From the IMG/VR virus record IMGVR_UViG_3300045988_047360: a stretch of DNA of 40,330 nucleotides; one strand, 5' to 3'. The notes beneath the pieces were generated by a model that searched no databases, was not told the origin of the DNA, and saw nothing but the letters and a program-made list of their open reading frames with translations. This DNA comes from a virus. Positions 1,977 through 37,461 of this stretch are shown one piece after another (the first letter of the stretch is position 1; the number at the start of each line of letters is the position of its first letter). Made by a program: the position numbers and the translations under genes.

Positions 1977-2065
1977 AATTTTGCAGAAATTAGACCATGC
2001 TTCCTTTGATTTTCCCGTTGTATTATGGCGGGAGACGTATTTGCTATGCCCTGATTGCAAAACAA

Positions 2066-2094
2066 ATTATAGACTATTATTAGAGCATTGTCAA
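2066..2094 (-). promoter_or_regulatory. Consensus sigma-70-type promoter directed toward the Cro-like early operon
   Basis: Minus strand reads TTGACA (2094-2089), 17-nt spacer, TATAAT (2071-2066). A TTATAGACTATT operator-like 12-mer overlaps the -10. Confidence 0.7.
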
Positions 2095-2149
2095 TCATTT
2101 TAAGACTTTTGTTAGACGTTATTTTAGACTATTTTTAGAGGTGTTAGTT

Positions 2150-2488
2150 ATGGATTTCGCACAATGGTTACAAAGCAAGCAGAAACAATACCACCTCACA
2201 AATTACAGAATAGCTAAAATGGCCGGAGTTCATCAGAGTACGGTTGCAGGATGGCTTAAAGGTACAAAACCGCAAGAGGAAAAAGAAGCTGACGTCCGCG
2301 CTGCAATTAAGAACTACGAAAATAGTCATTCCGAAGAGGGCCAAACCGAATTAAGTAAAAAAAATACGCCCACCGGTGAACCCGATGAGCGCGATGAAGA
2401 ATTTAATATGCTTATTTCTCAGCTGACAGCGGAAGAAAAGAAATTTATCTCCGCTCAGATAAAAGGGATTTTGTCAAATCGAGAATAA
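2150..2488 (+). CDS. CI-like XRE-family repressor
   Basis: AGAGGTG RBS. NYRIAKMAGVHQSTVAGWLKG is a helix-turn-helix. Acidic linker and short C-terminal helix. Alternative GTG start at 2141. Confidence 0.65.
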   Translation: MDFAQWLQSKQKQYHLTNYRIAKMAGVHQSTVAGWLKGTKPQEEKEADVRAAIKNYENSHSEEGQTELSKKNTPTGEPDERDEEFNMLISQLTAEEKKFISAQIKGILSNRE

Positions 2489-2564
2489 TGTCTTTTTCTT
2501 TTACAGTGAGTTGCCGGAACAGATCGGCCAGCTCTTGTGTAGATTTTTCTGCCTGCTCGTTCAT
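2445..2564 (-). CDS. Possible 39-aa ORF convergent with and overlapping the 3' end of the CI-like gene
   Basis: GGAGGAG RBS 6 nt before the ATG. MNEQAEKSTQELADLFRQLTVKEKDIILDLTKSLLSERR resembles the CI C-terminus (EFNMLISQLTAEEKKFISAQIKGIL). Confidence 0.25.
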   Translation of the reverse strand: MNEQAEKSTQELADLFRQLTVKEKDIILDLTKSLLSERR

Positions 2565-2698
2565 CTTCCGCTCCTCCATCCTTCCCATATTCAAACATTT
2601 GTTCTTTGTAAAAGTATATCATTCTTGTACTTGCTTTGCAACTGCAAAATGCACAATGTTTTGGGCCAATAGAAAATAATAAAATAGGGGGAAATTTT

Positions 2699-3787
2699 AT
2701 GGATTTTATTGATCAGTTAAAGCAGTTTTCTAAGCGCGTCGATTCAATGAAAAACAATGTGCAAACCGAAGAAGCAACCAAAACCGCATTGATTATGCCG
2801 TTTTTTTCTATGCTTGGATACGATGTTTTTAATCCACAGGAATTTGTCCCGGAATTTACTGCTGACGTTGGGATCAAAAAAGGTGAAAAAGTTGATTATG
2901 CTATTATAAAAGATGAAGAACCAGTTATCCTCATTGAGTGCAAAGCCATTACAGAGGATTTAGGGAAGCACGATTCCCAGCTTTTCCGCTATTTTGGGAC
3001 AACATCTGCTAAGTTTGCGATTTTGACAAACGGTCAGTATTATCGTTTTTACACTGATCTGGATAACCCAAATAAAATGGACGAAACGCCTTTTTTGTCT
3101 ATTAACATTTTAGATATCCGGGAAAACCAGGTGCCTGAACTAAAAAAATTCTGTAAATCCGTTTTTGACGTTGATTCAATTTTCAGCACAGCATCGGAGC
3201 TTAAATATGTACACGAATTTAAAGATATGTTCTCCCAGCAGCTAAACAATCCAACCGATGAATTTGTGAAGTTTTTCTTGACTGGCTGCTGGACTGGGCA
3301 GAAAACGCAAAATGTAATTGAAAAATTCAGGCCAATATTAAAGAAAGCTCTTAATGACCAGATCAGCGAGCTGATGAATGATAAAATCAAATCTGCGTTA
3401 GGTGGAGCTGGTGGAAGTGTTACAGTCCCGGCCACAGAAGAAAAAGTGGCAGAAGATGATTCGCAAGATGCATCTGCCGAAGAAAAGAAAGTTCATGCTA
3501 TCATTACTACCGAAGAAGAGCTTGAAGCATATTTTATTATTAAGAATTTGATGAGTGACATAGTAGACATCCACGATATCACTTATAAGGACACGGAATC
3601 TTACATAAATATCCTTTATAAATCAAACTCTCGCAAGTGGATTTGCAGGCTTCGATTGAGCGACACTACAAAAACAATAAGCATTCCAAACGAATCTAAG
3701 AAAGAAGTTAAGTACACGTTAGCTGATATATACGATATCCCTCAATATAAAGATCAGCTGCAACAAGTTTTGAAGCGTTACTTATAA
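2699..3787 (+). CDS. PD-(D/E)xK nuclease-fold protein with type I restriction HsdR N-terminal-like domain (362 aa)
   Basis: TEEATKTALIMPFFSMLGY, VDYAII and VILIECK (D..ExK) motifs. AT-rich gene inside the lysogeny module. Confidence 0.65.
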   Translation: MDFIDQLKQFSKRVDSMKNNVQTEEATKTALIMPFFSMLGYDVFNPQEFVPEFTADVGIKKGEKVDYAIIKDEEPVILIECKAITEDLGKHDSQLFRYFGTTSAKFAILTNGQYYRFYTDLDNPNKMDETPFLSINILDIRENQVPELKKFCKSVFDVDSIFSTASELKYVHEFKDMFSQQLNNPTDEFVKFFLTGCWTGQKTQNVIEKFRPILKKALNDQISELMNDKIKSALGGAGGSVTVPATEEKVAEDDSQDASAEEKKVHAIITTEEELEAYFIIKNLMSDIVDIHDITYKDTESYINILYKSNSRKWICRLRLSDTTKTISIPNESKKEVKYTLADIYDIPQYKDQLQQVLKRYL

Positions 3788-3860
3788 AATTTTTGTATAG
3801 ATACTTTGTTTCAATTGTGTCAGGATTTAATACTTAAAAAATATTTTAGGAGATGGGTTT

Positions 3861-4295
3861 ATGAAAAAAGTATTCAGTGTACTCCTTTGCTGCGGCGTAT
3901 GCCTGTCCTTTGCCGCATGCGGCGCAAACAGCACTCCCGGAAGCGATGCAGCGCAGGATCCTACGCCGCCCGATCTGACCGGTGAATGGAAGCAGACAAA
4001 CAGTGATTCGGACGATTCCTGGCAGGCTGCAACGATCACCGATGACACCATTGAGGTCTACTGGGTATCTGATAATGGAGACACGAAGTCTCTCTACTGG
4101 GCCGGTTCCTTCGAAGCGCCTACAGACGACGCAGAGCCGTACACATGGGAATCTGAAAACGATCACGACAAAACAGATTCCGCATTGCTCGCCAGCCCGG
4201 ACGATACCAAAACGTTTACTTATGAATCCGGCGAGCTGAGCTACGAAGTAAGCGCACTCGGCACGACAACAACGGTGCGGCTGGAAAAACAGTGA
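3861..4295 (+). CDS. Secreted lipoprotein (candidate superinfection-exclusion factor)
   Basis: AGGAG RBS. Signal peptide MKKVFSVLLCCGVCLSFAACG with a lipobox-like cysteine. Acidic mature part. Followed by a strong terminator. Confidence 0.7.
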   Translation: MKKVFSVLLCCGVCLSFAACGANSTPGSDAAQDPTPPDLTGEWKQTNSDSDDSWQAATITDDTIEVYWVSDNGDTKSLYWAGSFEAPTDDAEPYTWESENDHDKTDSALLASPDDTKTFTYESGELSYEVSALGTTTTVRLEKQ

Positions 4296-4544: not shown

Positions 4545-4946
4545 ATGACGATTCAAGAAATGTGCAATGAAAAAAGAATTGCTCTGGGCCTGACCCATCA
4601 GAACATCGCGGATCAGGCAGAAATGCCGCTGCAAACCGTGCGGAACTTCTTCTCCCGCGCGTCGAAAGCGCCGTCCATCTACACCACCGCGCAGATATGC
4701 GCCGTGCTGGGCGTGTCGCTGGATCAGTTCTTCGGCATTTGCGAACGACTGACGCAGAAAGAACAGCACATTGCCGATTTGCAAGCCTACATTGCAGATC
4801 AGGAATCTACCATTCAGGATTTGCACCGCCGCGCCCGTAGTATGCGCCGCGCAATTTTGGTGTTAGGCTGCGTGGCAATCGGCCTGCTGGTTTGGTGTAT
4901 TTATTTTGATTTGCATTGCCTTGATATTGGGTTTTATAGGAGGTAA
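4545..4946 (+). CDS. XRE-family HTH protein with coiled-coil and C-terminal transmembrane helix
   Basis: LTHQNIADQAEMPLQTVRNFFS is a helix-turn-helix. C-terminal AILVLGCVAIGLLVWCIYF is hydrophobic. The stop lies 5 nt before the integrase start. Confidence 0.6.
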   Translation: MTIQEMCNEKRIALGLTHQNIADQAEMPLQTVRNFFSRASKAPSIYTTAQICAVLGVSLDQFFGICERLTQKEQHIADLQAYIADQESTIQDLHRRARSMRRAILVLGCVAIGLLVWCIYFDLHCLDIGFYRR

Positions 4947-4950
4947 AGCA

Positions 4951-6060
4951 ATGGAGTGTATCAAATGTAAAGCCCCGCTGCCAGAGGGCGCGATCTTCTG
5001 CCCCATGTGCGGCAAAAAGCAAAACGAAAAGAAGTCGAATATTCACAAAAGAGGAAATGGCCAAGGAACGGCGATTCGTAGAGGAAAAACATGGACAGCC
5101 ATATGGACAGAAAATATTTATATTGACGCTGAAACGAAAGGGATAAAGCAAGTACGGAAATGGAAGGGAGGATTTACTTCAAAAACAGCTGCCTTAGCTT
5201 ATGCGGCTACCCCTTCGGAAGATCCCGTAAAAATTCCAACACTTCGGGATTATTGGAACAGCTGGGTAAATGGCGGCTTTACTAAATTATCTGATTCTAA
5301 AAAATGCGCACAAAAAATTGCATGGAAAAAACTTTCTTCCATTGCCGGCATGCCAGTGGATAAAATAACAATCGATACATTGCAAGAATGCATTGATGAA
5401 AAAGCTAAAACGTATTATCCCGCAAAAGACATGAAAACTGTTTTATCTCATTTGCTAAAGCGTGCAATTGCAGAAGGGTATATTGGCACTAATCTTTCCG
5501 AATTTATTACGCTTCCAAAGTTAAAGGAAACGGAAGCCAACCCATTTACAGAAAAAGAATTAGCTGCTTTTTGGGAAGCATATGGAAATGGTGATAGAAT
5601 TATAGGCTTTGTATTACTAATGATTTATACCGGTATGATGCCGGGCGAAATATTTATCTTAAAATCTGACATGATTGATTGGGAAAAGCGAGAAATTGTT
5701 AAAGCGGGTATCAAAACCGCAAAGAGAAAAGAAATCCCAATTGTTTTCCCAGAAATGATCGCGCCTGTTCTCGATAATTTAGTGCAATCATCGAGTAGTG
5801 CTGCCGGGTATGTTCTTGGAATGAATAAAGATAAATTTTATAAAGAGTACCACGAATCTATAAAAAAAGCGGGTGCAAGAGATTTGCCGCCCTATTCATG
5901 TAGACATACTACAGCAACAGCGCTTGCTCTTGGGAATATTGCACCAAGCGTAATTCAAAACGTTATGCGGCACGCTAAATTTTCCACTACTCAGCGATAT
6001 ATTCACCCGGATAATAAAAGCGCTCATGACGCAATTAACACGATTGGCAAAGGAGTGTAA
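4951..6060 (+). CDS. int: Tyrosine recombinase/integrase with N-terminal zinc ribbon
   Basis: AGGAGG RBS. CIKC..CPMC zinc ribbon. C-terminal catalytic-type motifs (YSCRHTTATAL, VMRHAKFSTTQRYIH). attP lies immediately downstream. Confidence 0.85.
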   Translation: MECIKCKAPLPEGAIFCPMCGKKQNEKKSNIHKRGNGQGTAIRRGKTWTAIWTENIYIDAETKGIKQVRKWKGGFTSKTAALAYAATPSEDPVKIPTLRDYWNSWVNGGFTKLSDSKKCAQKIAWKKLSSIAGMPVDKITIDTLQECIDEKAKTYYPAKDMKTVLSHLLKRAIAEGYIGTNLSEFITLPKLKETEANPFTEKELAAFWEAYGNGDRIIGFVLLMIYTGMMPGEIFILKSDMIDWEKREIVKAGIKTAKRKEIPIVFPEMIAPVLDNLVQSSSSAAGYVLGMNKDKFYKEYHESIKKAGARDLPPYSCRHTTATALALGNIAPSVIQNVMRHAKFSTTQRYIHPDNKSAHDAINTIGKGV

Positions 6061-6084
6061 TGCTAACTATAGTGCTAACTATAG
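6061..6084 (+). repeat. Two tandem copies of TGCTAACTATAG (candidate integrase arm-type sites, P arm)
   Basis: Exact 12-mer duplicated directly after the int stop codon. Two more copies at 6290-6313 flank the tRNA-derived core. Confidence 0.55.
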
Positions 6085-6142: not shown

Positions 6143-6191
6143 AAAAAAAGAAACCGGAAACCATTGAGTTCCAACGGTTTCCGGTCTTTTT
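6143..6191. terminator. Bidirectional rho-independent terminator (for int on plus, for the reconstituted tRNA on minus)
   Basis: 10-bp stem accggaaacc/ggtttccggt flanked by an A7 run upstream and a T5 run downstream. Confidence 0.75.
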
Positions 6192-6254
6192 GGCGCAGAA
6201 GGAGGGATTTGAACCCTCGCGCCGGTTACCCGGCCTACTCCCTTAGCAGGGGAG
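6191..6254 (-). tRNA. 3' fragment of tRNA-Ser(GCU), anticodon stem to CCA: attP core, not a complete tRNA
   Basis: Reverse complement reads CTCCC-CTGCTAA-GGGAG (anticodon GCT), long variable arm GCCGG-GTAA-CCGGC, T arm GAGGG-TTCAAAT-CCCTC, then acceptor 3' strand plus CCA. No D-arm or 5' acceptor strand lies upstream. Confidence 0.75.
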
Positions 6255-6289
6255 AAAAAGCCGTTGTGGCGCAGCGAAAAACGAGGATT

Positions 6290-6313
6290 TGCTAACTACT
6301 TTGCTAACTATAG
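6290..6313 (+). repeat. Two further TGCTAACTA(c/t)(t/a)(t/g) copies (candidate arm-type sites, P' arm)
   Basis: tgctaactactt followed by tgctaactatag, in the same orientation as 6061-6084. Confidence 0.5.
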
Positions 6314-6358
6314 CACAATGCGCACCAAGTCGTGTTTAATTTTTCGCAGGCAATTTGA

Positions 6359-6389
6359 GAACCCCCGGATGTACCCGGGGGTTCTTTTA
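6359..6389 (+). terminator. GC-rich hairpin with plus-strand T-tract at the end of the minus-strand operon
   Basis: gaacccccgg-atgtac-ccgggggttc then tttta. Sits directly after the stop of ORF 6387-6725 on the minus strand, where it lacks a U-tract. Confidence 0.6.
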
Positions 6390-6725
6390 TGCTTCCAATT
6401 TCCGCATCACGCCATTATATGCCCGCTCATTGATGATATGCAGCGTGTCCATTAGCTCGTCCATAACAGCAAACACGCGGGCGGGATCCTTGCCGCTGAC
6501 AGCCTGTAAGAAATCGCTGTCACCATAGACTGCAACGGGATTAGCAGGGGCAGCAGAATACATCGACGGTTGCGCAAAATGTTCTATGACTTTTGAATCA
6601 CTTTCGATTTGCTTTTGCCGCTGCTGAATAATATAAAGGATCGCCAGCTTTTCATAATTGGGCCAGCTGGATTCTTCCGTTTCCAAACGGGATATCCACA
6701 AGCGTAATTCTTTTTCGTCGATCAC
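6387..6725 (-). CDS. Hypothetical protein (cargo cassette, last gene)
   Basis: 112-aa ORF. No family recognised. The stop abuts hairpin 6359-6384. Confidence 0.55.
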   Translation of the reverse strand: MIDEKELRLWISRLETEESSWPNYEKLAILYIIQQRQKQIESDSKVIEHFAQPSMYSAAPANPVAVYGDSDFLQAVSGKDPARVFAVMDELMDTLHIINERAYNGVMRKLEA

Positions 6726-6740
6726 GGGGATACACCCCCT

Positions 6741-7124
6741 TTATCTCTCCAATGCGTCCATGCAGCGCCGGATAGCATCGCGGGTCGTGTCGTTGTCGGC
6801 ATTGTGCATCATTTCTTCCAGCTTCATCCGCATATTATCGTAAGCATCACTACGGCTGTAATGGCCACGCACATAATGCGATCCGCGGCGAGCATAAGAA
6901 CTGCCACGTCCATAATTGCCCCGAATATTGGCATTCCAATCGCCGCCGTGGGAATATTCTTCATCTTCAAACATCTCGATTTTGTAGATGTTTTTGATCG
7001 AACTGGTAATATCCCGAATGGCATCCAGTTCGGCAGCGCTGGCACCGCCCTTCTTCATGGTTTCGTTATACAAATCGCTCAGCTCATTGCAAAGCATTTC
7101 ACGCAGATCATCATAATTCCGCAT
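6741..7124 (-). CDS. Hypothetical protein with G/R/S/Y-rich low-complexity core
   Basis: 127 aa. Helical ends flank GNYGRGSSYARRGSHYVRGHYSRSD. Confidence 0.55.
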   Translation of the reverse strand: MRNYDDLREMLCNELSDLYNETMKKGGASAAELDAIRDITSSIKNIYKIEMFEDEEYSHGGDWNANIRGNYGRGSSYARRGSHYVRGHYSRSDAYDNMRMKLEEMMHNADNDTTRDAIRRCMDALER

Positions 7125-7137
7125 ATAGATTCTCCTT

Positions 7138-7560
7138 TCAAGACACGCGATCTACCGTAAGATTGCTATTCGCAAAATTTACGGCCTGTGTGCTGGTGTT
7201 TTCCATTGCGACGGTCAGGCAGCAACCGCGCGGCACTTCGACAATAGCGCTGACGTAAATGTTAAAGTAATTTTCAACCGCAGCAGGGGTGACAATGGCT
7301 GTAGCGCTGTTCAGGGGTTCGCCGTTAATAGCCAGAGCCGCGCTGATGGCTTCAACCGTGCCGCCGGTAGGGATAGCAATGTTGCCGCCAAACGCTACGC
7401 GGAACCGTGCCTTGCACTGGTTCGTCAGGCCCCGCAATGTTACGATGCCTGCGCCATCACGGTGCGTAATACATGGCTTGCTGTTGATCGCCGTTTCGGT
7501 CAGAGGTACGTTCTGACCGGCAGCGACTTCAATAATGTTGCTGTTTGCATATTCTGCCAT
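7138..7560 (-). CDS. BclA C-terminal / C1q-TNF-like jelly-roll domain protein (no collagen stalk)
   Basis: 140 aa and beta-rich. THRDGAGIVTLRG..RFRVAFGGNIAIPTGG..ALAINGEPL..CCLTVAMENTS recalls exosporium BclA-C domains. AAAGGA RBS. Confidence 0.4.
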   Translation of the reverse strand: MAEYANSNIIEVAAGQNVPLTETAINSKPCITHRDGAGIVTLRGLTNQCKARFRVAFGGNIAIPTGGTVEAISAALAINGEPLNSATAIVTPAAVENYFNIYVSAIVEVPRGCCLTVAMENTSTQAVNFANSNLTVDRVS

Positions 7561-7575
7561 AAAATCAATCCTTTC

Positions 7576-7616
7576 ATAAAATAAGCGGCGGGGCTATTGC
7601 CCCACCGCTTTGTTTT
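7576..7616 (-). terminator. Rho-independent terminator/attenuator between the 238-aa gene and the BclA-C-like gene
   Basis: 12-bp stem (aagcggtggggc/gccccgccgctt on minus) with an AATA loop, followed by ATTTTAT. Only about 20 nt separate it from the next start codon. Confidence 0.7.
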
Positions 7617-7673
7617 CAAAATCGGCACGGGGCCGAACAATTTCCGTTTTGGAAATAGTTGATGATGCAGTTG

Positions 7674-8390
7674 TCAGGCGCAGCCACAGCCGGTATAGGT
7701 GCCGCCAGCCCACGGATTACAGGACTGGTAAGCGGGGATCGGCGTAGGCCGCAGCTGCGAAATCAGATAGTTGTTCTGCGCAGCCTGAGAAGCCTGCAAA
7801 CGCAGCTCCTGATTTGCGCTCTGCAGATCCTGCAGCTTGCTCTGGGTCAGGAAGTCGAGAATCGCGCGGCTGTTCTGGTTCTGGTTGTCGATAATGTCGC
7901 GCGCCGCGGTGTTGACCGTGTTGCGGGTGTCGCATGCCTGCGTTGCCATGTCATAACGCACCTGCGCAATCGCTGCACGGTTTTCGCAGCAGCATTCCTG
8001 ATTCTGCATCTGCATAGCGTTCAGCTGCTGCATCAATGCGGCCTGCTGGTTGCAGCGTGCCAATTCGGCAGCAGAAAATCCGCTGGTCACAGCTTGCGTC
8101 ACACCGGCAAAACCGTTGAGCATACCGGTATTCATGGCATAAAAGCCATCGCAGATCCCATTGTTAACCGCATCCAGCTTGCGTTCGATGTTGGCGAAAT
8201 CAGAAGTCAGGACATAGCCGTCCATTACGCCGTTGTTGCCGTTCCCGCCAAAGCCATTGCGGCCCCAGCCAAACAAAAACAGGACAATGATCCAGATCCA
8301 ATCCTGGCCCCACATACCCATTCCACCACCGTAATTGTTTGCGGGAGCAACAGGCATCGTCATCATGGGGGTACCGTCAGAGAGAGACAT
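7674..8390 (-). CDS. Gly-rich single-pass membrane protein with N/Q-rich, Cys-containing coiled-coil ectodomain
   Basis: NNYGGGMGMWGQDWIWIIVLFLFGWGRNGFGGNGNNG, then Q/N-rich helices with ECCCE, ending in GCGCA. AAAGGAG RBS. Confidence 0.6.
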   Translation of the reverse strand: MSLSDGTPMMTMPVAPANNYGGGMGMWGQDWIWIIVLFLFGWGRNGFGGNGNNGVMDGYVLTSDFANIERKLDAVNNGICDGFYAMNTGMLNGFAGVTQAVTSGFSAAELARCNQQAALMQQLNAMQMQNQECCCENRAAIAQVRYDMATQACDTRNTVNTAARDIIDNQNQNSRAILDFLTQSKLQDLQSANQELRLQASQAAQNNYLISQLRPTPIPAYQSCNPWAGGTYTGCGCA

Positions 8391-8421
8391 ATAAAATCTC
8401 CTTTCGTTTTTTATTTATCAA

Positions 8422-8435
8422 ATCGTGGCCACGAT
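8422..8435. promoter_or_regulatory. Perfect 14-bp palindrome ATCGTGGCCACGAT upstream of the 238-aa gene (operator candidate)
   Basis: Lies in the only sizeable AT-rich gap (8391-8476) inside the cargo cassette. Confidence 0.35.
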
Positions 8436-8476
8436 ATTGATCCAATTAGCAAAATGTTTTTGGTTTTGTTTGCTTA

Positions 8477-8695
8477 TTATCGAAACAAATGGCCGAATTG
8501 CTGGGCCATCTGCTGCAGCTGGTTTAGTTCCTGCTGGCTCATTGCGCCGCTTTGCAAAAGTTTTTCAACTTCTGCTTTCGGGTTGCCCTGAAAACTGCTT
8601 TGAAACTGCCGGAATTGCTGAATCATGTTCTGGAACTGCCCGGCAGGACCAGGCATTTTGCCGCCGCCCAAAGAATCAAACAATGGATTACTCAT
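8477..8695 (-). CDS. Small Q-rich hypothetical protein (72 aa)
   Basis: Translationally coupled to the upstream ORF by an 8-nt overlap. Contains FQNMIQQFRQFQSSFQG and QQELNQLQQMAQQF. Confidence 0.5.
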   Translation of the reverse strand: MSNPLFDSLGGGKMPGPAGQFQNMIQQFRQFQSSFQGNPKAEVEKLLQSGAMSQQELNQLQQMAQQFGHLFR

Positions 8696-9107
8696 TTGCT
8701 TTTTCCTCCTTGCTCGTATCGCCGCTGATCTTACTTACAAGTGCTGCCAGCTCTTCAAACTCTTTCCGGGTAACATATTCGCCCTGCTGCACTACCGTTG
8801 GCGCTGCTTTATGCGCCGCCGTGCGCTCCGTGTAGTCCAGGATCCGCATAGATGGCACGCCGGATGCGTCAACAGATTTTAAATAAATCACCTGATTTTC
8901 ACTGTCCCAAAGTGGCACAGTATTACCGGCGCTGACCAGATAAGACCTCGCCCCCACTTCCCCTTGCACCCAAATCATAGCGGGCTGATTTGCTGCAAGC
9001 GCGGACATAGGCTGCTGCATCATCTGCTGCTGCCGCATCTGCATGAGGTTGTCCGGCATTGCCTGCGGATAATACGGATTCTGATATCCATATGGTGTAT
9101 ATGCCAT
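8688..9107 (-). CDS. Hypothetical protein: Q/M/P/Y-rich N-terminus plus small beta domain
   Basis: 139 aa. IWVQGEVGARSYLVSAGNTVPLWDSENQVIYLKSVDASGVPSMRILDY, followed by an acidic tail. Confidence 0.55.
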   Translation of the reverse strand: MAYTPYGYQNPYYPQAMPDNLMQMRQQQMMQQPMSALAANQPAMIWVQGEVGARSYLVSAGNTVPLWDSENQVIYLKSVDASGVPSMRILDYTERTAAHKAAPTVVQQGEYVTRKEFEELAALVSKISGDTSKEEKANE

Positions 9108-9108
9108 G

Positions 9109-9492
9109 TCACTTCATCCTTTCTTTCGCCCAGTAATACAAGATCACTTCATTTCCGGAATCCCAGCTATCATACCAATCGCCGTTTTGCACACAAACCA
9201 CATGGCCGGAAAGGGCCAAAATAAACGTGCCTGCCGGATGATCTGCGGCGAATTGGGCCACGGTATAGCAATCAGGGCAAGTATCCTGCACAAGATGTCT
9301 GCGGTATCCTTCTTCGCTCAAATAGTGGCCCCATACGGCGTTGCTGCTGGGCATATCCGCGTCGGTCAGGCCTTGCATGCAAAGTGCCATATAGGTCCAG
9401 TCCCAGTCCATTCCTGTGGCTTTGGAAATCGCTCTGACTGTGCAATCCCCCACGTTTTTTCCCTGCGGGTTTTCGTTGTAATGCTTAAACAT
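9109..9492 (-). CDS. Putative papain-fold (Cys-His) peptidase/amidase-like protein
   Basis: 127 aa. NVGDCTVRAIS (candidate nucleophile Cys) and LSGHVVCVQNGDWYDSWDSG (candidate His/Asp). Confidence 0.35.
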   Translation of the reverse strand: MFKHYNENPQGKNVGDCTVRAISKATGMDWDWTYMALCMQGLTDADMPSSNAVWGHYLSEEGYRRHLVQDTCPDCYTVAQFAADHPAGTFILALSGHVVCVQNGDWYDSWDSGNEVILYYWAKERMK

Positions 9493-9622
9493 GGCGAAAC
9501 TCCCTGTAAATGTGCTCGATCATAAAAACATACGTCTGCAATCCGCTTTCGGCCTGATACAGTGCCAAGACGTCATTTGCCATCTGTGGAGTAAAGCCGC
9601 ATGCAATCAATCTTTCGTACAT
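9485..9622 (-). CDS. Small hypothetical protein (45 aa), first gene of the cargo cassette
   Basis: CAGGTGG RBS before MYERLIACGFTPQMANDVLALYQ. 8-nt overlap with the next ORF. Confidence 0.4.
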   Translation of the reverse strand: MYERLIACGFTPQMANDVLALYQAESGLQTYVFMIEHIYREFRHV

Positions 9623-9661
9623 GTGACCACCTGTCTTTCTGCTCTTATGGTAATAAAAAAT

Positions 9662-9702
9662 CGGGCAGATAAATTGCCCGAAAACTGCCCGCATTCTGCC
9701 CG
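9662..9702. promoter_or_regulatory. TGCCCG repeats: three direct copies with 11-bp phasing plus one inverted copy
   Basis: cgggca at 9662; tgcccg at 9675, 9686 and 9697. Located between terminator 9708-9743 and the first cassette gene. Confidence 0.4.
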
Positions 9703-9707
9703 TTCAA

Positions 9708-9743
9708 TAAAAAAACAAGAGCGCACCATACCGGTACGCTCCT
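9708..9743 (-). terminator. Rho-independent terminator closing the late/lysis operon
   Basis: Minus strand reads AGGAGCGTACC-GGTAT-GGTGCGCTCTT (11 bp, two G-U pairs) followed by GTTTTTTTATT. Confidence 0.8.
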
Positions 9744-9748
9744 GCTTT

Positions 9749-9985
9749 TCACCCTTTAATATCATCCGCTATTTTGGCGTATGCTTTACGCCGTATTTTG
9801 GCAAGTCCATCCACGCTGACGTGCAAATGTTCTGCCGTCTGCACGCAGCTTTTTTTGCAAATATCAATGTCAATGACGCATTGTTCTTCTCTCTCCGGCA
9901 GGTTTACCCTGCGCACGGCTTCGATTGCTTTGTTTGGAGCCATAGACGATAGCAATGCGCGTATTGTTTTATACTGACTGTTCAT
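9749..9985 (-). CDS. Small sigma-70 region-4-like HTH protein
   Basis: LPEREEQCVIDIDICKKSCVQTAEHLHVSVDGLAKIRRKAYAKI resembles sigma region 4 / LuxR-type HTH. Confidence 0.45.
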   Translation of the reverse strand: MNSQYKTIRALLSSMAPNKAIEAVRRVNLPEREEQCVIDIDICKKSCVQTAEHLHVSVDGLAKIRRKAYAKIADDIKG

Positions 9986-10055: not shown

Positions 10056-10637
10056 TTATTTTTCCACGGCCTGTGCCAGCTTGATAATGAGATCATCGCC
10101 ATAGCGGTAGCTGTCCAGATAGGTAATCGTCGCGTCGCTCAGGCCCGCCTTGGACTTGAGAATGCTTTTCGCTTCGTCTTTGGTCACTGCTTTCACCTCC
10201 CGATACAGCGGCATCAACCGCGGCAGCTGCCCCTTACGCACCATGGACGCCGTGAATCTGCCGCCATCGTCCCACTGGAAATGCGGACGGTCCGGCAGGC
10301 TCTTCCAGTCTCCGCCCCAGGTGAAGCCCATTTCCTTCCCGATCGCGCCGCACTTGCGGAAGAAGTCCGCATCGTCGTATTCATGGCCCTTGACGTTTTT
10401 GCAGATGTCAAAGGCCAGACCGACCTTGTCCCAATGGAAAGAGGGCGTTTTCTGGTTCGTGACGATCTTTCCCGGCTTTGTTCGCCCCTGCGCGTAAAGA
10501 CTGGCCTGATACTCCAGATCCCGCACCGTCTCCACCACAGCCACCGGCAAGCCCTCTGCCGCGCACCGCTGAATCAACACCCGGCAGTTATGCGCGACGT
10601 CGCTGCGCAGCCGGTCAATCTCTCTCGATTTGAGCAT
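10056..10637 (-). CDS. Endolysin, peptidase M15 (VanY-like zinc peptidase) family
   Basis: SFHWDKVGLAFDI and LPDRPHFQW zinc-ligand motifs. AAAGGATGAG RBS. C-terminal helical extension. Confidence 0.75.
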   Translation of the reverse strand: MLKSREIDRLRSDVAHNCRVLIQRCAAEGLPVAVVETVRDLEYQASLYAQGRTKPGKIVTNQKTPSFHWDKVGLAFDICKNVKGHEYDDADFFRKCGAIGKEMGFTWGGDWKSLPDRPHFQWDDGGRFTASMVRKGQLPRLMPLYREVKAVTKDEAKSILKSKAGLSDATITYLDSYRYGDDLIIKLAQAVEK

Positions 10638-30343: not shown

Positions 30344-30368
30344 AAGTTTCTTTTCTTTTTGCCCTATT

Positions 30369-30423
30369 TTGATTCCGTTTTGATTGCCGTTTGTTTATTG
30401 TTTGATTCCGTTTTGATTTCGCC
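30369..30423 (+). repeat. Five 11-bp phased TTTG(A/T)TTsCG-like repeats
   Basis: TTGATT/TTGTTT starts at 30369, 30380, 30391, 30402 and 30413. Confidence 0.85.
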
Positions 30424-35987: not shown

Positions 35988-36802
35988 CCCGTCACCTCCC
36001 GGAGCCATTCCAGGTTTGCCTTTGCTTTTGGACGCCGCCGGTTCTCCCCGCCGAAATACAGCGGCGTACACAGTTCCAGTACCCGGTCATAGATCCGCTG
36101 GTAGTTCATGTTTTCGGGCTTCTTCAGCGCGGAAAGCGGCAGGTTTGTTGTCACGATCAGCGGCAGGCCCGACTTGTAGCGCTCGTCCACCACCTGATAC
36201 ACGGTCTCAAGGGCGTAATCGCTCTGCCGCTCCGCGCCCAGATCATCCAGCACCAGCAGCTTGTAGCGGTTCAGCTGACCGATGATCTTATCGCGTGCGT
36301 CCCATCCTACGCCGAGGATTTTCGGGAAGGAGGTCACCATGGCCGGGATCCCGCGATCCAGCGCCGCGTTGGCGATGCAGGCCGCCGCAAAGGTCTTGCC
36401 GGTGCCGGTGTTGCCCCACAGCAGCAGCCCCCGGTTCTCCCGCACCGCCTCGCTCAGATGCTGCGCGTAGGCCTTGCAGCGCAGAAGATCCGGCGTTTCC
36501 TCCGCCGATGCGAAGGTATAGCCCCGCACGGCACGATCCGCGATGCAGGACGCCCGCAGCCGCTCGATGCGGTCCATCTCCTGCCGCTGCTGTTCCGCTT
36601 TGCGCTCCGCTTCGTAGCGCCGCGCGGCGCAGCTGCATTGACAGCCCACCACCCGCAGGGCAGTTCCGAAACGAATCCGGCACTGCTTCGGCGTCCGGCA
36701 CGCGCCGCAGTACAGCAGACCGTCCTGTATGTAATCGCCGGGGTTCCGGACCGGCTGCGCCTTTCGGATCACGGTATTCAATGCATCTGTCAAAGCATTC
36801 AT
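35984..36802 (-). CDS. DnaC/IstB-like AAA+ helicase loader
   Basis: Walker A GNTGTGKT, Walker B LLVLDDLG. N-terminal Cys cluster. Confidence 0.8.
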   Translation of the reverse strand: MNALTDALNTVIRKAQPVRNPGDYIQDGLLYCGACRTPKQCRIRFGTALRVVGCQCSCAARRYEAERKAEQQRQEMDRIERLRASCIADRAVRGYTFASAEETPDLLRCKAYAQHLSEAVRENRGLLLWGNTGTGKTFAAACIANAALDRGIPAMVTSFPKILGVGWDARDKIIGQLNRYKLLVLDDLGAERQSDYALETVYQVVDERYKSGLPLIVTTNLPLSALKKPENMNYQRIYDRVLELCTPLYFGGENRRRPKAKANLEWLREVTG

Positions 36803-37461
36803 AAGCTTCCCTCCATGCTTCCGGGGTCATAGTGCCAGGTGCCGCTTTCGGCTTCGGCCTTTTTCAGGCGATCCCAGATAATGCCCTGCCAGTTGCTGGA
36901 CATACACTTGCCGATCAGGCCGATCACGGCGTCCTCGCCATACCGGGCGGCGTTGTTACGGATCTCCCCGATCAGGGCTTTCAATCCCTCGGGCTTGTAG
37001 CTCTGGTGCTTCTCCGACTTGTACCGCAGCCAGGATTCCAATGCGGACTGCAATGCGGGAGAAAAACCGGTGGATGAAAGGGGGGTAGGGGGAATAGAAC
37101 TATCGTTCTCTCTCTCTTTCTCTACCTCTACCTCTATCTCCCCCTCTTTCTCTTTCTTGCTTGCGGTTTCCCATTGCTTCCCGTTTGCTTCCGCTTTGCT
37201 TCCGTTTTGCTTGCAGTTTGCTTGCGGTTTGCTTCCGCCCTTTTTACCGATTTCTGCTTTTGCTTTGGCTTTGTCAAGGACAGGCCGGAGCAACTCAAAA
37301 GCAATTGCCACAGCGTCGGAAGCTGTATTCAAGTCAGGCTCGATCTGATCTAAAGCATACGCGCAAATCATGTCGTAAACGTCCGCTCTGTCCTGCTTTT
37401 TCTTGATTCGGCTTATTGCTTTGAAAAAGCTGCGGTAGAAAGTAAATTGGTTCCGTTCCAT
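36799..37461 (-). CDS. Replisome organizer / replication initiator-like protein (conserved phage C-terminal domain)
   Basis: FTFYRSFFKAI N-terminus. C-terminal WLRYKSEKHQSYKPEGLKAL..SSNWQGIIW. Iteron array lies inside the gene. Confidence 0.6.
   Translation of the reverse strand: MERNQFTFYRSFFKAISRIKKKQDRADVYDMICAYALDQIEPDLNTASDAVAIAFELLRPVLDKAKAKAEIGKKGGSKPQANCKQNGSKAEANGKQWETASKKEKEGEIEVEVEKERENDSSIPPTPLSSTGFSPALQSALESWLRYKSEKHQSYKPEGLKALIGEIRNNAARYGEDAVIGLIGKCMSSNWQGIIWDRLKKAEAESGTWHYDPGSMEGSL
37157..37239 (+). repeat. Iteron-like array: TTTGCTTsCG repeats, six in exact 11-bp phase (candidate origin)
   Basis: TTGCTT starts at 37157, 37174, 37185, 37196, 37207, 37218 and 37229. A polypyrimidine tract at 37100-37156 is adjacent. 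Confidence 0.8.

Follow-up and report, generated by a model that had tools for sequence, protein, structure and literature searches.

In phage PhiCrAss001, small head fibres are docked in hexon pockets of a disulfide-stabilised virion, and the authors of that work anticipate that other crassviruses have similar fibre proteins, as yet uncharacterised (PMC10172136). In this work, we have analysed a 40,330-nt stretch of viral DNA (IMG/VR record IMGVR_UViG_3300045988_047360; hereafter the window), in which eight minus-strand genes, g1 to g8, form a genuine operon. The virus is a temperate gut phage, and the operon, with control elements of its own, occupies the end that carries the attachment site. 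What our analysis establishes is that these genes are conserved in their linkage, that the block is portable, which control elements it carries and how g6 and g2 are predicted to fold. As a tentative reading, which we hold to be possible rather than probable, we propose that the operon is a portable, self-regulated module whose products assemble, at the infected cell's membrane, into a complex anchored by g5 and capped by g6.

All eight ORFs reported in the initial annotation are present, and direct reading of the sequence places a Shine-Dalgarno-like sequence 5' of each. In order of transcription they are g1 (9485-9622; 45 aa, with an AGGTGG ribosome-binding site), g2 (9109-9492; 127 aa), g3 (8688-9107; 139 aa, with a Q/M/P/Y-rich N-terminus), g4 (8477-8695; 72 aa, Q-rich), g5 (7674-8390; 238 aa, Gly- and Cys-rich, with one hydrophobic segment), g6 (7138-7560; 140 aa), g7 (6741-7124; 127 aa, with a G/R/S/Y-rich centre) and, last, g8 (6387-6725; 112 aa). 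The block is bounded upstream by a strong terminator (9708-9745) and downstream by a GC-rich hairpin (6357-6386). None of the eight genes matches a family in Pfam, NCBIfam or PADLOC; the earlier statement that no product resembles a standard virion, lysis or lysogeny protein holds for every module gene, and the same is true of defence families.

Co-occurrence across genomes, on which the idea of a unit depended, showed that linkage is not lost: g2>g3>g4>g5>g6>g7 are colinear in nearly all (about 230-260) of 260 related loci, belonging to three clades, and the genes are linked well above chance expectation. The unit is nevertheless not strictly one of eight genes. The conserved core is g2-g7, to which g8 is often but not universally attached (117 loci, two clades), whereas g1 is limited to one lineage, with homologues in only 38 loci. 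In the window's clade median intergenic gaps range from -12 to +15 nt, so that neighbours overlap or abut, except at two conserved spacers, g4-g5 and g5-g6. Could these simply be unrelated small accessory genes, co-inherited by closely related phages and sharing no joint function? Solitary g2 relatives occur elsewhere, g1, g8 and a neighbouring sigma-like gene come and go, and inserts, including homing endonuclease genes, split the block in some phages. We consider this very improbable, since the g2-g7 order survives at both of two unrelated genome positions and between clades that share just 38-53% identity in g6, relatives of g3, g4, g5 and g8 are again adjacent in the C. perfringens phage CPD1, and the tight gaps outside the two spacers argue in the same direction.

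The six-gene core, with its order intact, is found in hundreds of gut and rumen phages, and its two genome positions are unrelated: the block is portable. At the first, the order is lysin, module, integrase; at the second, portal/minor capsid protein, module, scaffold/capsid. The second arrangement is that of the Dulem virus 35 clade, where Phage_min_cap2 flanks the module on one side, and the scaffold and capsid genes on the other, in at least 57 of 80 loci. The window has the first. Upstream of the module lies a Peptidase_M15_4 endolysin gene (10056-10637), and at its distal end are the tRNA-Ser(GCU)-derived attP and the integrase ORF (4906-6060, plus strand), which lies outside the module and converges with it across attP. 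The attP core (6191-6250, minus strand) is a stretch of about 60 nt equal to the 3' part of a tRNA-Ser(GCU) gene, in which we read the anticodon loop, the long variable arm, the T arm, the acceptor and CCA; copies of TATAGTTAGCA on both sides of it (6061-6083 and 6287-6313) may be read as arm-type integrase sites. A search of the window found no complete tRNA gene and gave a T-arm/acceptor-like match at 6202-6219, while a complete tRNA-Ser(gct) lies directly 3' of the module in three integrated relatives (L007, L011 and L016). In the window's clade, most loci have an integrase homologue after the module, on the opposite strand; the relatives whose g6 is identical have instead a Phage_integrase-family protein or a serine recombinase. 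The module remains at the end of the late genes while the integrase varies (Phage_integrase family, serine recombinase, or Phage_int_SAM_1 beside host genes). Together with the terminators, these surroundings bear out the earlier description of a discrete unit between the lysis genes and attP.

This location invites the alternative that the module is a membrane-active lysis accessory, which times or completes envelope disruption and is co-regulated with holin and endolysin. It lies directly 3' of the endolysin in the clades of the window and of the Butyrivibrio phage Ceridwen, and in the crAss-like phage cr116_1 about 1.2 kb separates the g5 homologue from the holin and L,D-carboxypeptidase genes. 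The Gly-rich hydrophobic segment of g5 and its N/Q-rich region, which bear a weak, non-significant resemblance to influenza HA2 near the fusion peptide, could also suit such a role. We find it quite improbable, however: a strong terminator separates the module from the lysis operon, the position varies (head operon, early region, after tail genes), phages with related lysins lack the module, and no lipobox or typical holin architecture is present. Moreover, most carriers infect hosts with one membrane, in which a spanin-like step is not needed.

The module carries several control elements, and elements of these same kinds recur in relatives. The strong lysis-operon terminator described initially is there (9708-9745, minus strand; 18-bp stem, -26.6 kcal/mol, z -6.7, followed by UUUUUUU) and ends that operon. 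The last gene before it (9749-9985, minus strand) codes for a 78-aa protein with a weak sigma-70 region-4-like helix-turn-helix (Pfam Sigma70_r4, E 0.026; NCBIfam sigma70-ECF, E 0.036), a candidate regulator; it is near the module in 47 loci, the listed orders all being from the window's clade, and accompanies the module in only part of that clade. Downstream of the terminator, the phased TGCCCG repeats reported at 9662-9702 (minus strand) consist of CGGGCA in three direct copies, one every 11 bp (9675-9702), and in a fourth, inverted one (9662-9667), and the last direct copy could pair with the inverted one in a small hairpin followed by a T run. The hexamer as such is not enriched in the window (41 copies vs about 31 expected); near-identical 6-base units in at least three copies spaced by 10-12 bp occur at just three window sites, 9675-9702 included, with 26 overlapping matches of that kind observed vs 0.05 expected from shuffles. 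Relatives have three 11-bp-spaced repeats of other sequence units in the same place, in 16 of 73 and 5 of 65 distinct upstream regions (21 regions vs 0.1 expected), located 29-122 nt, mostly 54-91 nt, 5' of the first gene.

The two conserved spacers also contain signals noted before. In the g4-g5 spacer, the 14-bp perfect palindrome ATCGTGGCCACGAT (8422-8435) is a candidate operator: among 52 distinct g4-g5 spacers from the window's clade, 44 have as their longest inverted repeat one with 6 bp or more per arm, and in most of those displayed among the 44 this repeat is the palindrome itself. The g5-g6 spacer (7561-7673, minus strand) is a structured RNA with three hairpins: H1, variable (7638-7659), H2, conserved (7622-7636), and H3 (7583-7610), GC-rich and terminator-like (about -28.7 kcal/mol, z -5.8, then AUUUUAU), which corresponds to the attenuator recognised initially. 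Across 57 distinct sequences 98.6% of cells are paired, compensatory changes occur in 10 of 13 pairs, and the covariation signal exceeds shuffled and slid controls alike; a comparison with Rfam returned no family match. At the end of the cassette, the distal hairpin folds strongly (-25.3 kcal/mol, z -5.0); its U tract is poor when read on the minus strand, and a T run follows it on the plus strand.

The g5 protein matches phrog_16490. In alignments its N-terminus shows an MPVxP motif and then Gly-rich flanks around one short aromatic hydrophobic segment; the N/Q-rich region that we mentioned above has weak similarity to coiled-coil proteins, a CCC motif is invariant, and the C-terminus is Pro- and Cys-rich (PxPxPAY...GCGC), with a mean of 10 Cys per protein in the family. 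The hydrophobic core has 13-15 residues and lacks flanking positive charges: the flanks are acidic on both sides, K+R being slightly higher C-terminally. The segment may not be long enough to span a membrane, and its topology is ambiguous. Among the module products it is the only hydrophobic segment, and the other products contain no signal-peptide-like or membrane-spanning stretch, so that no export route is evident; reading of the module sequences and alignments likewise revealed no lipoboxes, sortase motifs or signal peptides. The g5 family is large (1552 cluster representatives at 50% identity, E <= 1e-3) and includes proteins of C. perfringens phages, of crAss-like and Bacteroides phages, and of viruses of Methanomassiliicoccales (methanogenic archaea), in early, head and late positions and sometimes after tail genes.

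These positions bear on the main rival of our proposal, an optional virion appendage, with g5 as fibre or spike stalk, g6 as its TNF-fold head and the other genes as assembly factors. The hydrophobic segment of g5 would then anchor in the capsid or tail, or enter the target membrane on ejection, and the structure would bind ligands of the host cell or of gut surfaces; a ligand of the gut environment could account for the spread over gut viruses of unrelated hosts. We regard this as rather unlikely. The head-operon location in the Dulem virus 35 clade favours it, as does cr116_1, where a short way 5' of the scaffold-like and capsid genes come the g5 homologue and, after it, a small beta-rich Cys protein; depositors annotated the crAss-like g5 homologue as 'spike protein/glycoprotein' or 'viral fiber'. 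Indeed, these two positions fit a virion role equally well or better than a membrane complex, and count against the latter. The head fibres and disulfides of PhiCrAss001 (PMC10172136) offer a precedent, TNF/C1q heads are common on viral fibres, and cytoplasmic assembly agrees with the missing signal peptides. By contrast, early or recombination genes surround the g5 module of CPD1 and of Bacteroides phage C3_41T2LP, the modules of the window and of Ceridwen are each a separate terminator-bounded unit 3' of the lysis genes, none of the module genes has a match in a structural family of PHROG or Pfam, and no homologue of the 136-aa protein was found in phiCrAss001, which is also absent among the g5-family matches listed. 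In crAss-like and C. perfringens phages, what comes after g5 is a protein with no detectable relation to g6, which also counts against the membrane complex.

The initial annotation of g6 as BclA-C/C1q-like is supported by a confident AlphaFold2 model (pLDDT 94.1) with a TNF/C1q jelly roll, and by structural matches to F-BclA, ExsFA/BxpB, BclA-CTD, EDA and C1q (E 4e-7 to 1e-5, TM 0.66-0.74); further matches are the phi812 central spike knob and giant-virus collagen/C1q proteins. By analogy with such proteins, g6 is expected to form a trimer. It belongs to phrog_20016, with more than 7000 homologues and an invariant GCC motif. Its nearest solved structures are the exosporium proteins BclA, F-BclA and ExsFA/BxpB, which speaks for the original interpretation of the block as lysogenic-conversion cargo, an exosporium-like assembly of the cell or spore surface. 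So do its own terminators and control elements, and the integrated module's place at the extreme end of the prophage, beside the host tRNA-Ser. Cys-rich, Q-rich and G/R/S/Y-rich compositions may also be reminiscent of spore-coat proteins. This interpretation is not supported by the comparison with other genomes, and we judge it very improbable. Ceridwen, which its genome indicates to be virulent and for which only a lytic cycle has been observed, carries the module with terminators on both sides; to our knowledge, its host genus Butyrivibrio does not form spores. The presence of the module there points to lytic relevance, which counts in favour of a membrane complex. A spore-surface role in particular is unlikely because of this virulent phage, the head-operon position, the occurrence of g5 relatives in crAss-like and Bacteroides phages and in archaeal viruses and the lack of an evident export route. 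Finally, collagen repeats are absent from the module, and Pfam gave no match to BclA_C, DUF3992 or a spore family.

The proposal that g2 is Cys-His peptidase-like stands as regards topology and invariant residues, but the structure search found nothing significant among solved structures (top match Josephin-2, E 0.19). The AlphaFold2 model (pLDDT 92.7) places the Cys at a helix N-terminus and the His and Asp on strands; D16, C17, H97, D108 and C72 are invariant in the alignment, a CPDC motif is conserved, and by topology g2 is a minimal papain-like Cys/His/Asp protein. It corresponds to phrog_3754, a PHROG to which no function is assigned, and may not be dedicated to the module, because Bacillus, Geobacillus and Lak phages have solitary relatives of it in their early regions. 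The g3 protein (phrog_21718) matched no solved structure; in its alignment the consensus WVQGEAGAKSYLV...DSE...YLKS.DASGMP marks one conserved region, initially described as a small beta domain, and EYVTK.E..AL marks another at the C-terminus; g4 (phrog_22984; 231 loci) has a median Q+N fraction of 0.30. g7, with a weak match to phrog_28802, is found in 251 loci, always preceded by g6, and the CPD1 relative of g8 was detected with an E of 9e-8.

What could such a module build? In the membrane complex that we tentatively favour, transcription would start at a dedicated activator-dependent promoter, the activator, possibly the neighbouring 78-aa sigma-region-4-like protein, binding the three 11-bp-spaced repeats, and the structured g5-g6 spacer with its terminator-like hairpin would set the ratio of g2-g5 to g6-g8 expression. 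The complex itself, its topology, expression time and role are what we infer. Since only g5 is hydrophobic and no product has a signal peptide, assembly would take place in the cytoplasm, at the inner face of the membrane, in the infected or lysogenic cell. There, the short Gly/Trp/Phe-rich segment of g5 would enter the cytoplasmic membrane and display a long Cys-rich stalk, taken as a coiled coil; papain-like g2 might mature or cross-link some component, and adaptor or chaperone roles might fall to g3 and g4, both Q/M-rich, and to g7 and g8, both of low complexity. The g5 family spans viruses of monoderm, diderm and archaeal hosts, and therefore its target is probably a membrane, or a membrane-level step, common to all tailed viruses. 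Possible roles are the exclusion of superinfecting genomes or the organisation of late events at the membrane. The g6 trimer would dock on or near the Pro/Cys-rich C-terminus of g5, an interaction suggested by the adjacency of the two genes and by analogy with the exosporium, where ExsFA holds the N-terminal peptide of a fibre protein; the structure of ExsF with a bound anchor peptide (9h3d) is likewise among the matches of g6.

Our results show that the eight minus-strand genes studied here (g1 to g8) form a portable, terminator-bounded operon with conserved control elements and gene order, which encodes a hydrophobic Cys-rich protein, a TNF-fold protein and a papain-like protein. We read the window as the genome of a temperate, siphophage-like virus whose late genes are encoded on the minus strand. 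On this strand an endolysin gene (10056-10637; Peptidase_M15_4, by Pfam and PHROG match) is followed by a gene for a 78-aa protein (9749-9985) with a weak sigma-70 region-4 signature in Pfam and NCBIfam, and by a strong intrinsic terminator (9708-9745; -26.6 kcal/mol, z -6.7, followed by a U run). Then come g1 (9485-9622), g2 (9109-9492), g3 (8688-9107), g4 (8477-8695), g5 (7674-8390), g6 (7138-7560), g7 (6741-7124) and g8 (6387-6725), each with a Shine-Dalgarno-like sequence and several with overlapping stop and start codons, and a GC hairpin (6357-6386; -25.3 kcal/mol) closes the run. These ORF coordinates match exactly those of the initial annotation. Farther on, some 60 nt (6191-6250) can be recognised as the 3΄ part of a tRNA-Ser(GCU), which runs from the anticodon loop through the long variable arm and the T arm to the acceptor and CCA; TATAGTTAGCA repeats lie on both of its flanks, and the integrase gene (4906-6060) is convergent on it. 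ARAGORN found no whole tRNA in the window, and in integrated relatives from bacterial genomes (L007, L011, L016) a complete tRNA-Ser(gct) lies directly 3΄ of the module. The cassette had been placed between the lysis genes and attP, and this is correct, because the endolysin and the terminator stand on one side and the tRNA-Ser fragment and the integrase beyond the distal hairpin.

Two other features of this genome were observed. A 17-bp hairpin with a T run (6151-6187) directly follows the CCA end of the tRNA-Ser fragment, and is presumably the terminator of the host tRNA gene, carried in attP. The stretch 2001-4000, in the presumed lysogeny-side region, has a G+C content of 0.38 versus about 0.45-0.62 elsewhere in the window and includes a plus-strand ORF of 383 aa (2636-3787); it may be separately acquired cargo.

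A set of 260 related loci, taken from phage records, bacterial genomes and viral contigs, was searched with an iterated profile for each window protein. The genes g2 to g7 are colinear in essentially every sufficiently long locus of three clades, in which g6 shares only 38-53% identity with that of the window. The linked cassette described initially is thus real, but its conserved unit comprises six genes (usually seven) and not eight, since g8 is present in 117 loci of two clades, and g1, like the sigma-like gene, only in part of the window's clade. There are two unrelated places at which the block is found: in the window's and Ceridwen clades the endolysin precedes it and an opposite-strand integrase follows it, and in the Dulem virus 35 clade (at least 57 of 80 loci) it stands between Phage_min_cap2 and the scaffold/capsid genes. 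That a block of six to eight genes keeps its order while changing its genome position points to a multi-protein machine. Ceridwen, whose block is also bracketed by terminators, was isolated on Butyrivibrio fibrisolvens, where only a lytic cycle was seen, and its genome led to its being judged virulent (PMC7372960). Finding the module in this virulent phage and inside head operons is evidence against a function limited to lysogens.

We discarded the idea of a separate integrated element or satellite: replication and packaging genes are absent from the block, which is always co-oriented with the late genes. A defence system was also rejected, on the lack of PADLOC matches and the occurrence in virulent phages. 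Phages with related lysins lack the module, although the lysin relatives found are only distant (58-66% identity), so that its dispensability is only weakly supported.

Four contigs (L265-L268) encode a g6 identical to protein P0111 and have near-identical late ends with different continuations: a Phage_integrase-family gene in L267, a serine recombinase in L266, and in L265 and L268 a Phage_int_SAM_1 protein, beyond which lie the host's HtrA and two-component genes. It is thus the late end of the genome that the module accompanies, rather than the genes for integration, and integration modules have been swapped recently among these relatives. In other relatives (L019) the attachment site is a tmRNA gene. 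Extra genes split the block in some loci: an annotated opposite-strand endonuclease between g4 and g5 in Dulem virus 33 (L002:5410-5961), a Cys-rich 216-aa protein, read as HNH-like, at the same place in phage CPD1 (L263:4017-4667), and a 264-aa protein with a weak HTH_17 match between g6 and g7 in Ceridwen (L001:7518-8312) and a few other loci. Apart from these insertions, the genes stand in their usual order.

The control elements ascribed to the cassette do exist, and its relatives have elements of the same kinds. Upstream of g1, CGGGCA is repeated three times at an 11-bp period (9675-9702), with one inverted copy (9662-9667), and this hexamer shows no enrichment over the whole window. Only three places in the window have six-base units in at least three copies 10-12 bp apart, the CGGGCA array among them (26 overlapping matches observed versus 0.05 expected from shuffles). 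In relatives, three 11-bp-spaced repeats are likewise found at this place, between 29 and 122 nt (mostly 54-91 nt) ahead of the first module gene, with units as varied as CCACTT, TGACCAAA, GCGGGCA, TGATGC, GGCGCA, TGACCC, TGCCCGAAA, TTGCAC and others; in two clades such triple repeats were seen in 16 of 73 and in 5 of 65 different upstream regions, with 0.1 expected. An arrangement that is kept while its sequence changes is expected of sites bound by a regulator of diverging specificity. Among the promoters listed there is no clear sigma-70 promoter at the repeat region. Some late promoters are driven by an activator that binds direct repeats, as is the case for Alt of the lactococcal phage TP901-1, and the cassette resembles them in its three direct repeats one helical turn apart. 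It departs from them in that the repeat unit differs between relatives and that the activator is only a candidate; the unit also differs from the presumed late-promoter repeats of the window itself (30368-30407). We propose that the three upstream repeats would serve an activator, possibly the sigma-like neighbour.

Those presumed late-promoter repeats consist of TTTGATT, present about four times at 11-bp spacing in a gap upstream of ORFs presumed to be packaging genes, and are a possible late promoter operator. At 37173-37236, inside the ORF 36799-37461, about six copies of TTTGCTTCC-like units, again at 11-bp spacing, look like origin iterons. The CGGGCA unit is absent from both arrays.

Within the operon, the palindrome ATCGTGGCCACGAT (8422-8435) is found again in most of the printed g4-g5 spacers of the window's clade. 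The 113-nt spacer between g5 and g6 (7561-7673), where an internal attenuator had been predicted, forms more than one hairpin: H1, which is variable, H2, which is conserved, and the terminator-like H3 (7583-7610), which is rich in GC. This arrangement is common to the window's clade, Dulem virus 33 and the Dulem virus 35 clade; the Ceridwen clade is without it, and there g5 and g6 nearly abut. In 57 distinct sequences, 98.6% of the cells of H2 and H3 are paired and 10 of the 13 pairs show compensatory changes, with pairing and covariation well above shuffled and slid controls alike. H2 and H3 can also be read as a short ORF, whose amino acids, however, are altered by the compensatory changes; what is conserved is therefore the RNA structure rather than a peptide. 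Neither the spacer RNA nor the upstream control region matches an Rfam family. We suggest that the spacer RNA may set the ratio of g2-g5 to g6-g8, and both this RNA and the repeat-controlled promoter are further leads in themselves. A near-invariant (A/T)TG(T/G)TC was seen between H1 and H2 in the spacer alignment (A8: window 7561-7673, L002:6881-7001, L004:6864-6984 and about 55 other loci).

What do the proteins of the module look like? Searches of Pfam, NCBIfam and PADLOC with g1-g8 and the sigma-like neighbour gave nothing above noise (for the PADLOC models, no match at E <= 0.1 for any of these nine proteins), and g2-g6 fall in PHROG families that are all of unknown function. Structure prediction was more informative for g6 and g2, each of which belongs to a family of more than 7000 clusters at 90% identity; their alignments were built from two homologue searches. 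The AlphaFold2 model of g6 (pLDDT 94.1; 140 residues) shows a TNF/C1q-type jelly roll that spans residues 2 to 138, so the likeness to the BclA C-terminus and C1q that had been guessed from sequence is right at the level of the fold. Its best solved-structure matches are the F-BclA C-terminal domain, ExsFA/BxpB, BclA-CTD, EDA, 4-1BBL and C1q (TM 0.66-0.74), with E values from 4e-7 to 1e-5 for the Bacillus exosporium and endospore-appendage anchoring proteins (PDB 1wck, 9h38, 7r1m, 8d02, 9h3d); BclA-CTD (1wck, TM 0.72) and F-BclA (9h38, E 4e-7) are matches of fold only. Among the viral models, those closest to g6 belong to uncultured gut phages and are stand-alone proteins some 135-145 residues long, and further structural matches include the phi812 spike knob and giant-virus collagen/C1q proteins.

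These matches bring up a spore- or cell-surface cargo, as favoured in the initial annotation. Like ExsFA/BxpB, g6 is a stand-alone TNF-like domain in the range of 140-170 residues, and it superposes well on these proteins (7r1m, 8d02, 9h3d; TM 0.70-0.74); because the identity is only 10-13%, this is a resemblance and not membership. In the exosporium, ExsFA/BxpB binds a fibre or anchor protein by the N-terminal peptide of this partner. Unlike the exosporium anchors, to which its identity is 10-14%, g6 has no Pfam match (none at E <= 0.1, BclA C-terminal and exosporium families included), and a profile search of solved-structure sequences returned no significant match. It has neither the collagen-like GXX repeats nor the N-terminal exosporium-targeting segment of BclA, and the module contains no partner like the basal-layer proteins ExsY/CotY. 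The setting is also different, as the carriers of the module are phages, some with non-spore-forming hosts. We thus rate surface or spore-surface cargo as less likely than the readings developed below, in view, for example, of the virulent carriers and the head-operon position. A comparison of g6 with the Ena appendage subunits, whose DUF3992 jelly roll has a Cys-rich connector at the N-terminus, gave no Pfam match and no Ena entry among the 50 structural matches listed; the Cys-rich N-terminus CNRRCNCC was seen only in an unrelated 125-aa protein of phage CPD1.

For g2 (127 residues; AlphaFold2 pLDDT 92.7), the predicted topology is papain-like. C17, H97 and D108 are invariant in 120 sequences, and in the model C17 opens a helix (17-26), H97 precedes a strand (98-102) and D108 ends another (105-108), an arrangement of catalytic residues that is typical of clan CA. 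By structure, Josephin-2 comes nearest (E 0.19, TM 0.46), and the other weak matches are largely cysteine peptidases or deubiquitinases; no significant match was obtained by structure against solved structures, or by sequence in Pfam, NCBIfam and a profile search of solved-structure sequences. The earlier description as a Cys-His peptidase-like protein holds for the topology and the invariant residues, and g2 is a putative member of clan CA. With the peptidases, deubiquitinases and transglutaminases of clan CA (Josephin, Tae4-like amidases) g2 shares the Cys at a helix start and the His and Asp on later strands, and it differs from papain-like enzymes in its mere 127 residues and an extra conserved CPDC motif. 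Bacillus phage depositors have labelled its homologues 'putative peptidase'. In Bacillus subtilis, the transglutaminase Tgl and its Q-rich substrate GerQ form an enzyme-substrate pair. By analogy, g2, which also has Q-rich neighbours, might cross-link g3 and g4 in the manner of a transglutaminase; we keep this only as a sub-hypothesis, weakened because g2 occurs alone in other phages, which also makes it separable from the rest of the module. Such solitary homologues were observed in the early regions of unrelated phages, among them Geobacillus phage GBK2 (L261:4986-5375), Bacillus phage Izhevsk (L262:4974-5369), Tsamsa-like Bacillus phages and Lak megaphages, and in the Tsamsa-like phages they lie near serine-threonine kinase and Ocr-like anti-restriction genes, which hints at a host-takeover or counter-defence role of the small papain-like family apart from the module. 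In Dulem virus 35 (PP511522.1) a g2 homologue 56% identical to that of the window (L004:3977-4375) is uncalled in the deposited annotation, which has overlapping ORFs in other frames at this place. A bacteriocin system was also considered, in which g2 would be the C39 leader peptidase and either g4 or g1 would supply the double-glycine peptides, and was rejected, as there is no C39 match and no transporter among the module genes or the listed neighbours.

At its N-terminus the g5 alignment has MPVxP. A single short hydrophobic segment of aromatic character is flanked by Gly-rich stretches; the protein also has a long region rich in N and Q, the invariant motif CCC and a C-terminus rich in Pro and Cys, and the family mean is 10 cysteines. 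The features of the Gly-rich TM protein with an N/Q- and Cys-rich part that had been described are seen. Its topology is ambiguous, because the residues flanking the hydrophobic segment are acidic on both sides. Among the module families only g5 has such a segment. In the g3 alignment the N-terminus is rich in Q, M, P and Y, the core region shows good conservation, and a stretch at the C-terminus is also conserved; g4 is Q-rich and the centre of g7 is G/R/S/Y-rich. Profile searches of solved-structure sequences with g5 and g3 gave nothing significant. The many weak matches of g5 to influenza HA2 (E 0.05-1) represent one redundant family on the Gly/Trp-rich stretch, and we judged them compositional.

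The g5 family (PHROG 16490) extends well beyond the three clades. It counts 1552 representatives at 50% identity (E <= 1e-3); each is a stand-alone protein, and their lengths run from about 100 to 330 residues, with most at 200-300. Its profile matches a protein of the C. perfringens phage CPD1 (E 2e-33), flanked by g3-, g4- and g8-like genes among the early genes, and over its full length the 'spike protein/glycoprotein' of the crAss-like phage cr116_1 (L264:3392-4288; E 4e-34), just upstream of scaffold-like and capsid genes. Many crassviruses, Bacteroides phage C3_41T2LP (L270:4989-5906) and two Methanomassiliicoccales viruses also have relatives; in the archaeal virus inspected, vir215, a hypothetical protein (L269:4878-5759) lies after the tail genes and before an integrase. 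The cr116_1, C3_41T2LP and vir215 proteins are full-length or near-full-length homologues. Depositors have named members from crassviruses and the Bacteroides phage 'spike protein/glycoprotein' and 'outer capsid protein/viral fiber', names that are probably owed to a weak likeness to the fusion or fibre proteins of viruses. In the Bacteroidota lineage g5 is again followed by a small, beta-rich protein that bears Cys; profile-profile comparison found no homology between g6 and the proteins after g5 in cr116_1 and CPD1. Small proteins with an HExxH motif adjoin the g5 homologue in cr116_1 (L264:2901-3248, L264:5481-5876) and C3_41T2LP (L270:7770-8234), one of them annotated as a PolyVal metallopeptidase, and in Firmicutes phages the papain-like g2 takes their place. 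Judging from these motifs, some peptidase may be a constant companion of g5.

What could be the role of the module? We propose that g5 would be anchored in the cytoplasmic membrane and bear a stalk, which a g6 trimer would cap by analogy with ExsF, whose structure 9h3d holds a peptide of a fibre/anchor protein and served as the model for docking g5 and g6. In this scheme g2 may mature or cross-link one component, and the low-complexity proteins could be adaptors. As no hydrophobic or signal-like segment exists outside g5, assembly should take place in the cytoplasm, and as the g5 family is found in viruses of monoderm and diderm bacteria and of archaea, the target should be a membrane or a step common to all tailed viruses. 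We regard this reading as a possibility well short of probable, and superinfecting-DNA exclusion or the membrane-level organising of late events is our guess for its role. Slightly more tentative is a broader proposal, in which g5 and a small Cys-bearing beta-sandwich partner would be the core of an undescribed apparatus of the gut virosphere: g5, somewhat fusion-protein-like, would bear the TNF-fold head and nucleate a Cys- or metal-cross-linked low-complexity scaffold, acting on the cytoplasmic membrane, the only envelope layer common to all hosts; a small peptidase would mature the scaffold, an activator-controlled promoter and a structured attenuator RNA would regulate it, and its carriers would be Firmicutes siphophages, crAss-like and other Bacteroidota phages and methanogenic archaeal viruses. 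If true, this would be a new functional class of phage module, and not a variant of fibre, lysis gene or moron.

In the main rival explanation, the module would make a virion fibre that is optional, or a protein that is ejected and penetrates the membrane. In its favour are the position in a head operon, the crAss context of the g5 homologue and the precedent of phiCrAss001, with small head fibres and disulfide-stabilised virions (PMC10172136); the early-region positions and the separate transcription unit count against it. A lysis accessory is less likely: spanins form an inner- and outer-membrane pair with a lipoprotein signal, and holins are small with several membrane-spanning segments, but the module has just one short hydrophobic segment, in g5, with no lipobox seen in the alignments and no lysis PHROG match for g1-g8. 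A spanin was rejected, as the hosts mostly possess one membrane only and a lipoprotein is lacking.

In the literature searched, no description of this gene set was found; none of the four PHROG identifiers is mentioned, a search on BclA and C1q with prophage returned nothing relevant, and the phiCrAss001 papers describe no g5 homologue. No annotation library names any part of the module, which is nevertheless among the more widespread unexplained gene sets of gut and rumen phages. The cassette is best taken as a portable phage accessory operon with a fibre-like TNF-fold component, and there is a real chance that it represents a new functional class. Should it be a membrane-level exclusion or organising device, or else an optional gut virion fibre, it would give a function to part of the unannotated genes of gut viruses. 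Ceridwen, CPD1 and C3_41T2LP, cultured isolates with the module or its g5 core, open it to experiment.

Two further known systems come close to the module. In viral fibres and spikes such as PRD1 P5, giant-virus collagen/C1q proteins and phage fibre knobs, a trimeric TNF/C1q-like head sits on a stalk of coiled-coil or collagen type, and here the long N/Q-rich g5 likewise adjoins the TNF-fold g6. The context is also fibre-like, with the module in the head operon in one clade and a g5 homologue near the capsid genes of a crAss-like phage, where the phiCrAss001 head fibres gp21 and gp29 are a positional analogue. Unlike fibres and spikes, the module would have stalk and head as separate polypeptides; it has a g5 with a hydrophobic Gly/aromatic segment and about 10 cysteines, and locations in early regions and after lysis genes as well. 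With morons such as lambda lom and bor, which are autonomous units of promoter, gene and terminator close to att, it has in common the flanking terminators, its own upstream control region and the att-proximal prophage end, as well as its absence from phages with related lysins and its movement between genome positions. Seen as a genomic object, the cassette behaves like a large moron, but one that has six to eight co-ordered genes in place of one or two, and that is also carried by virulent phages and inside a head operon.
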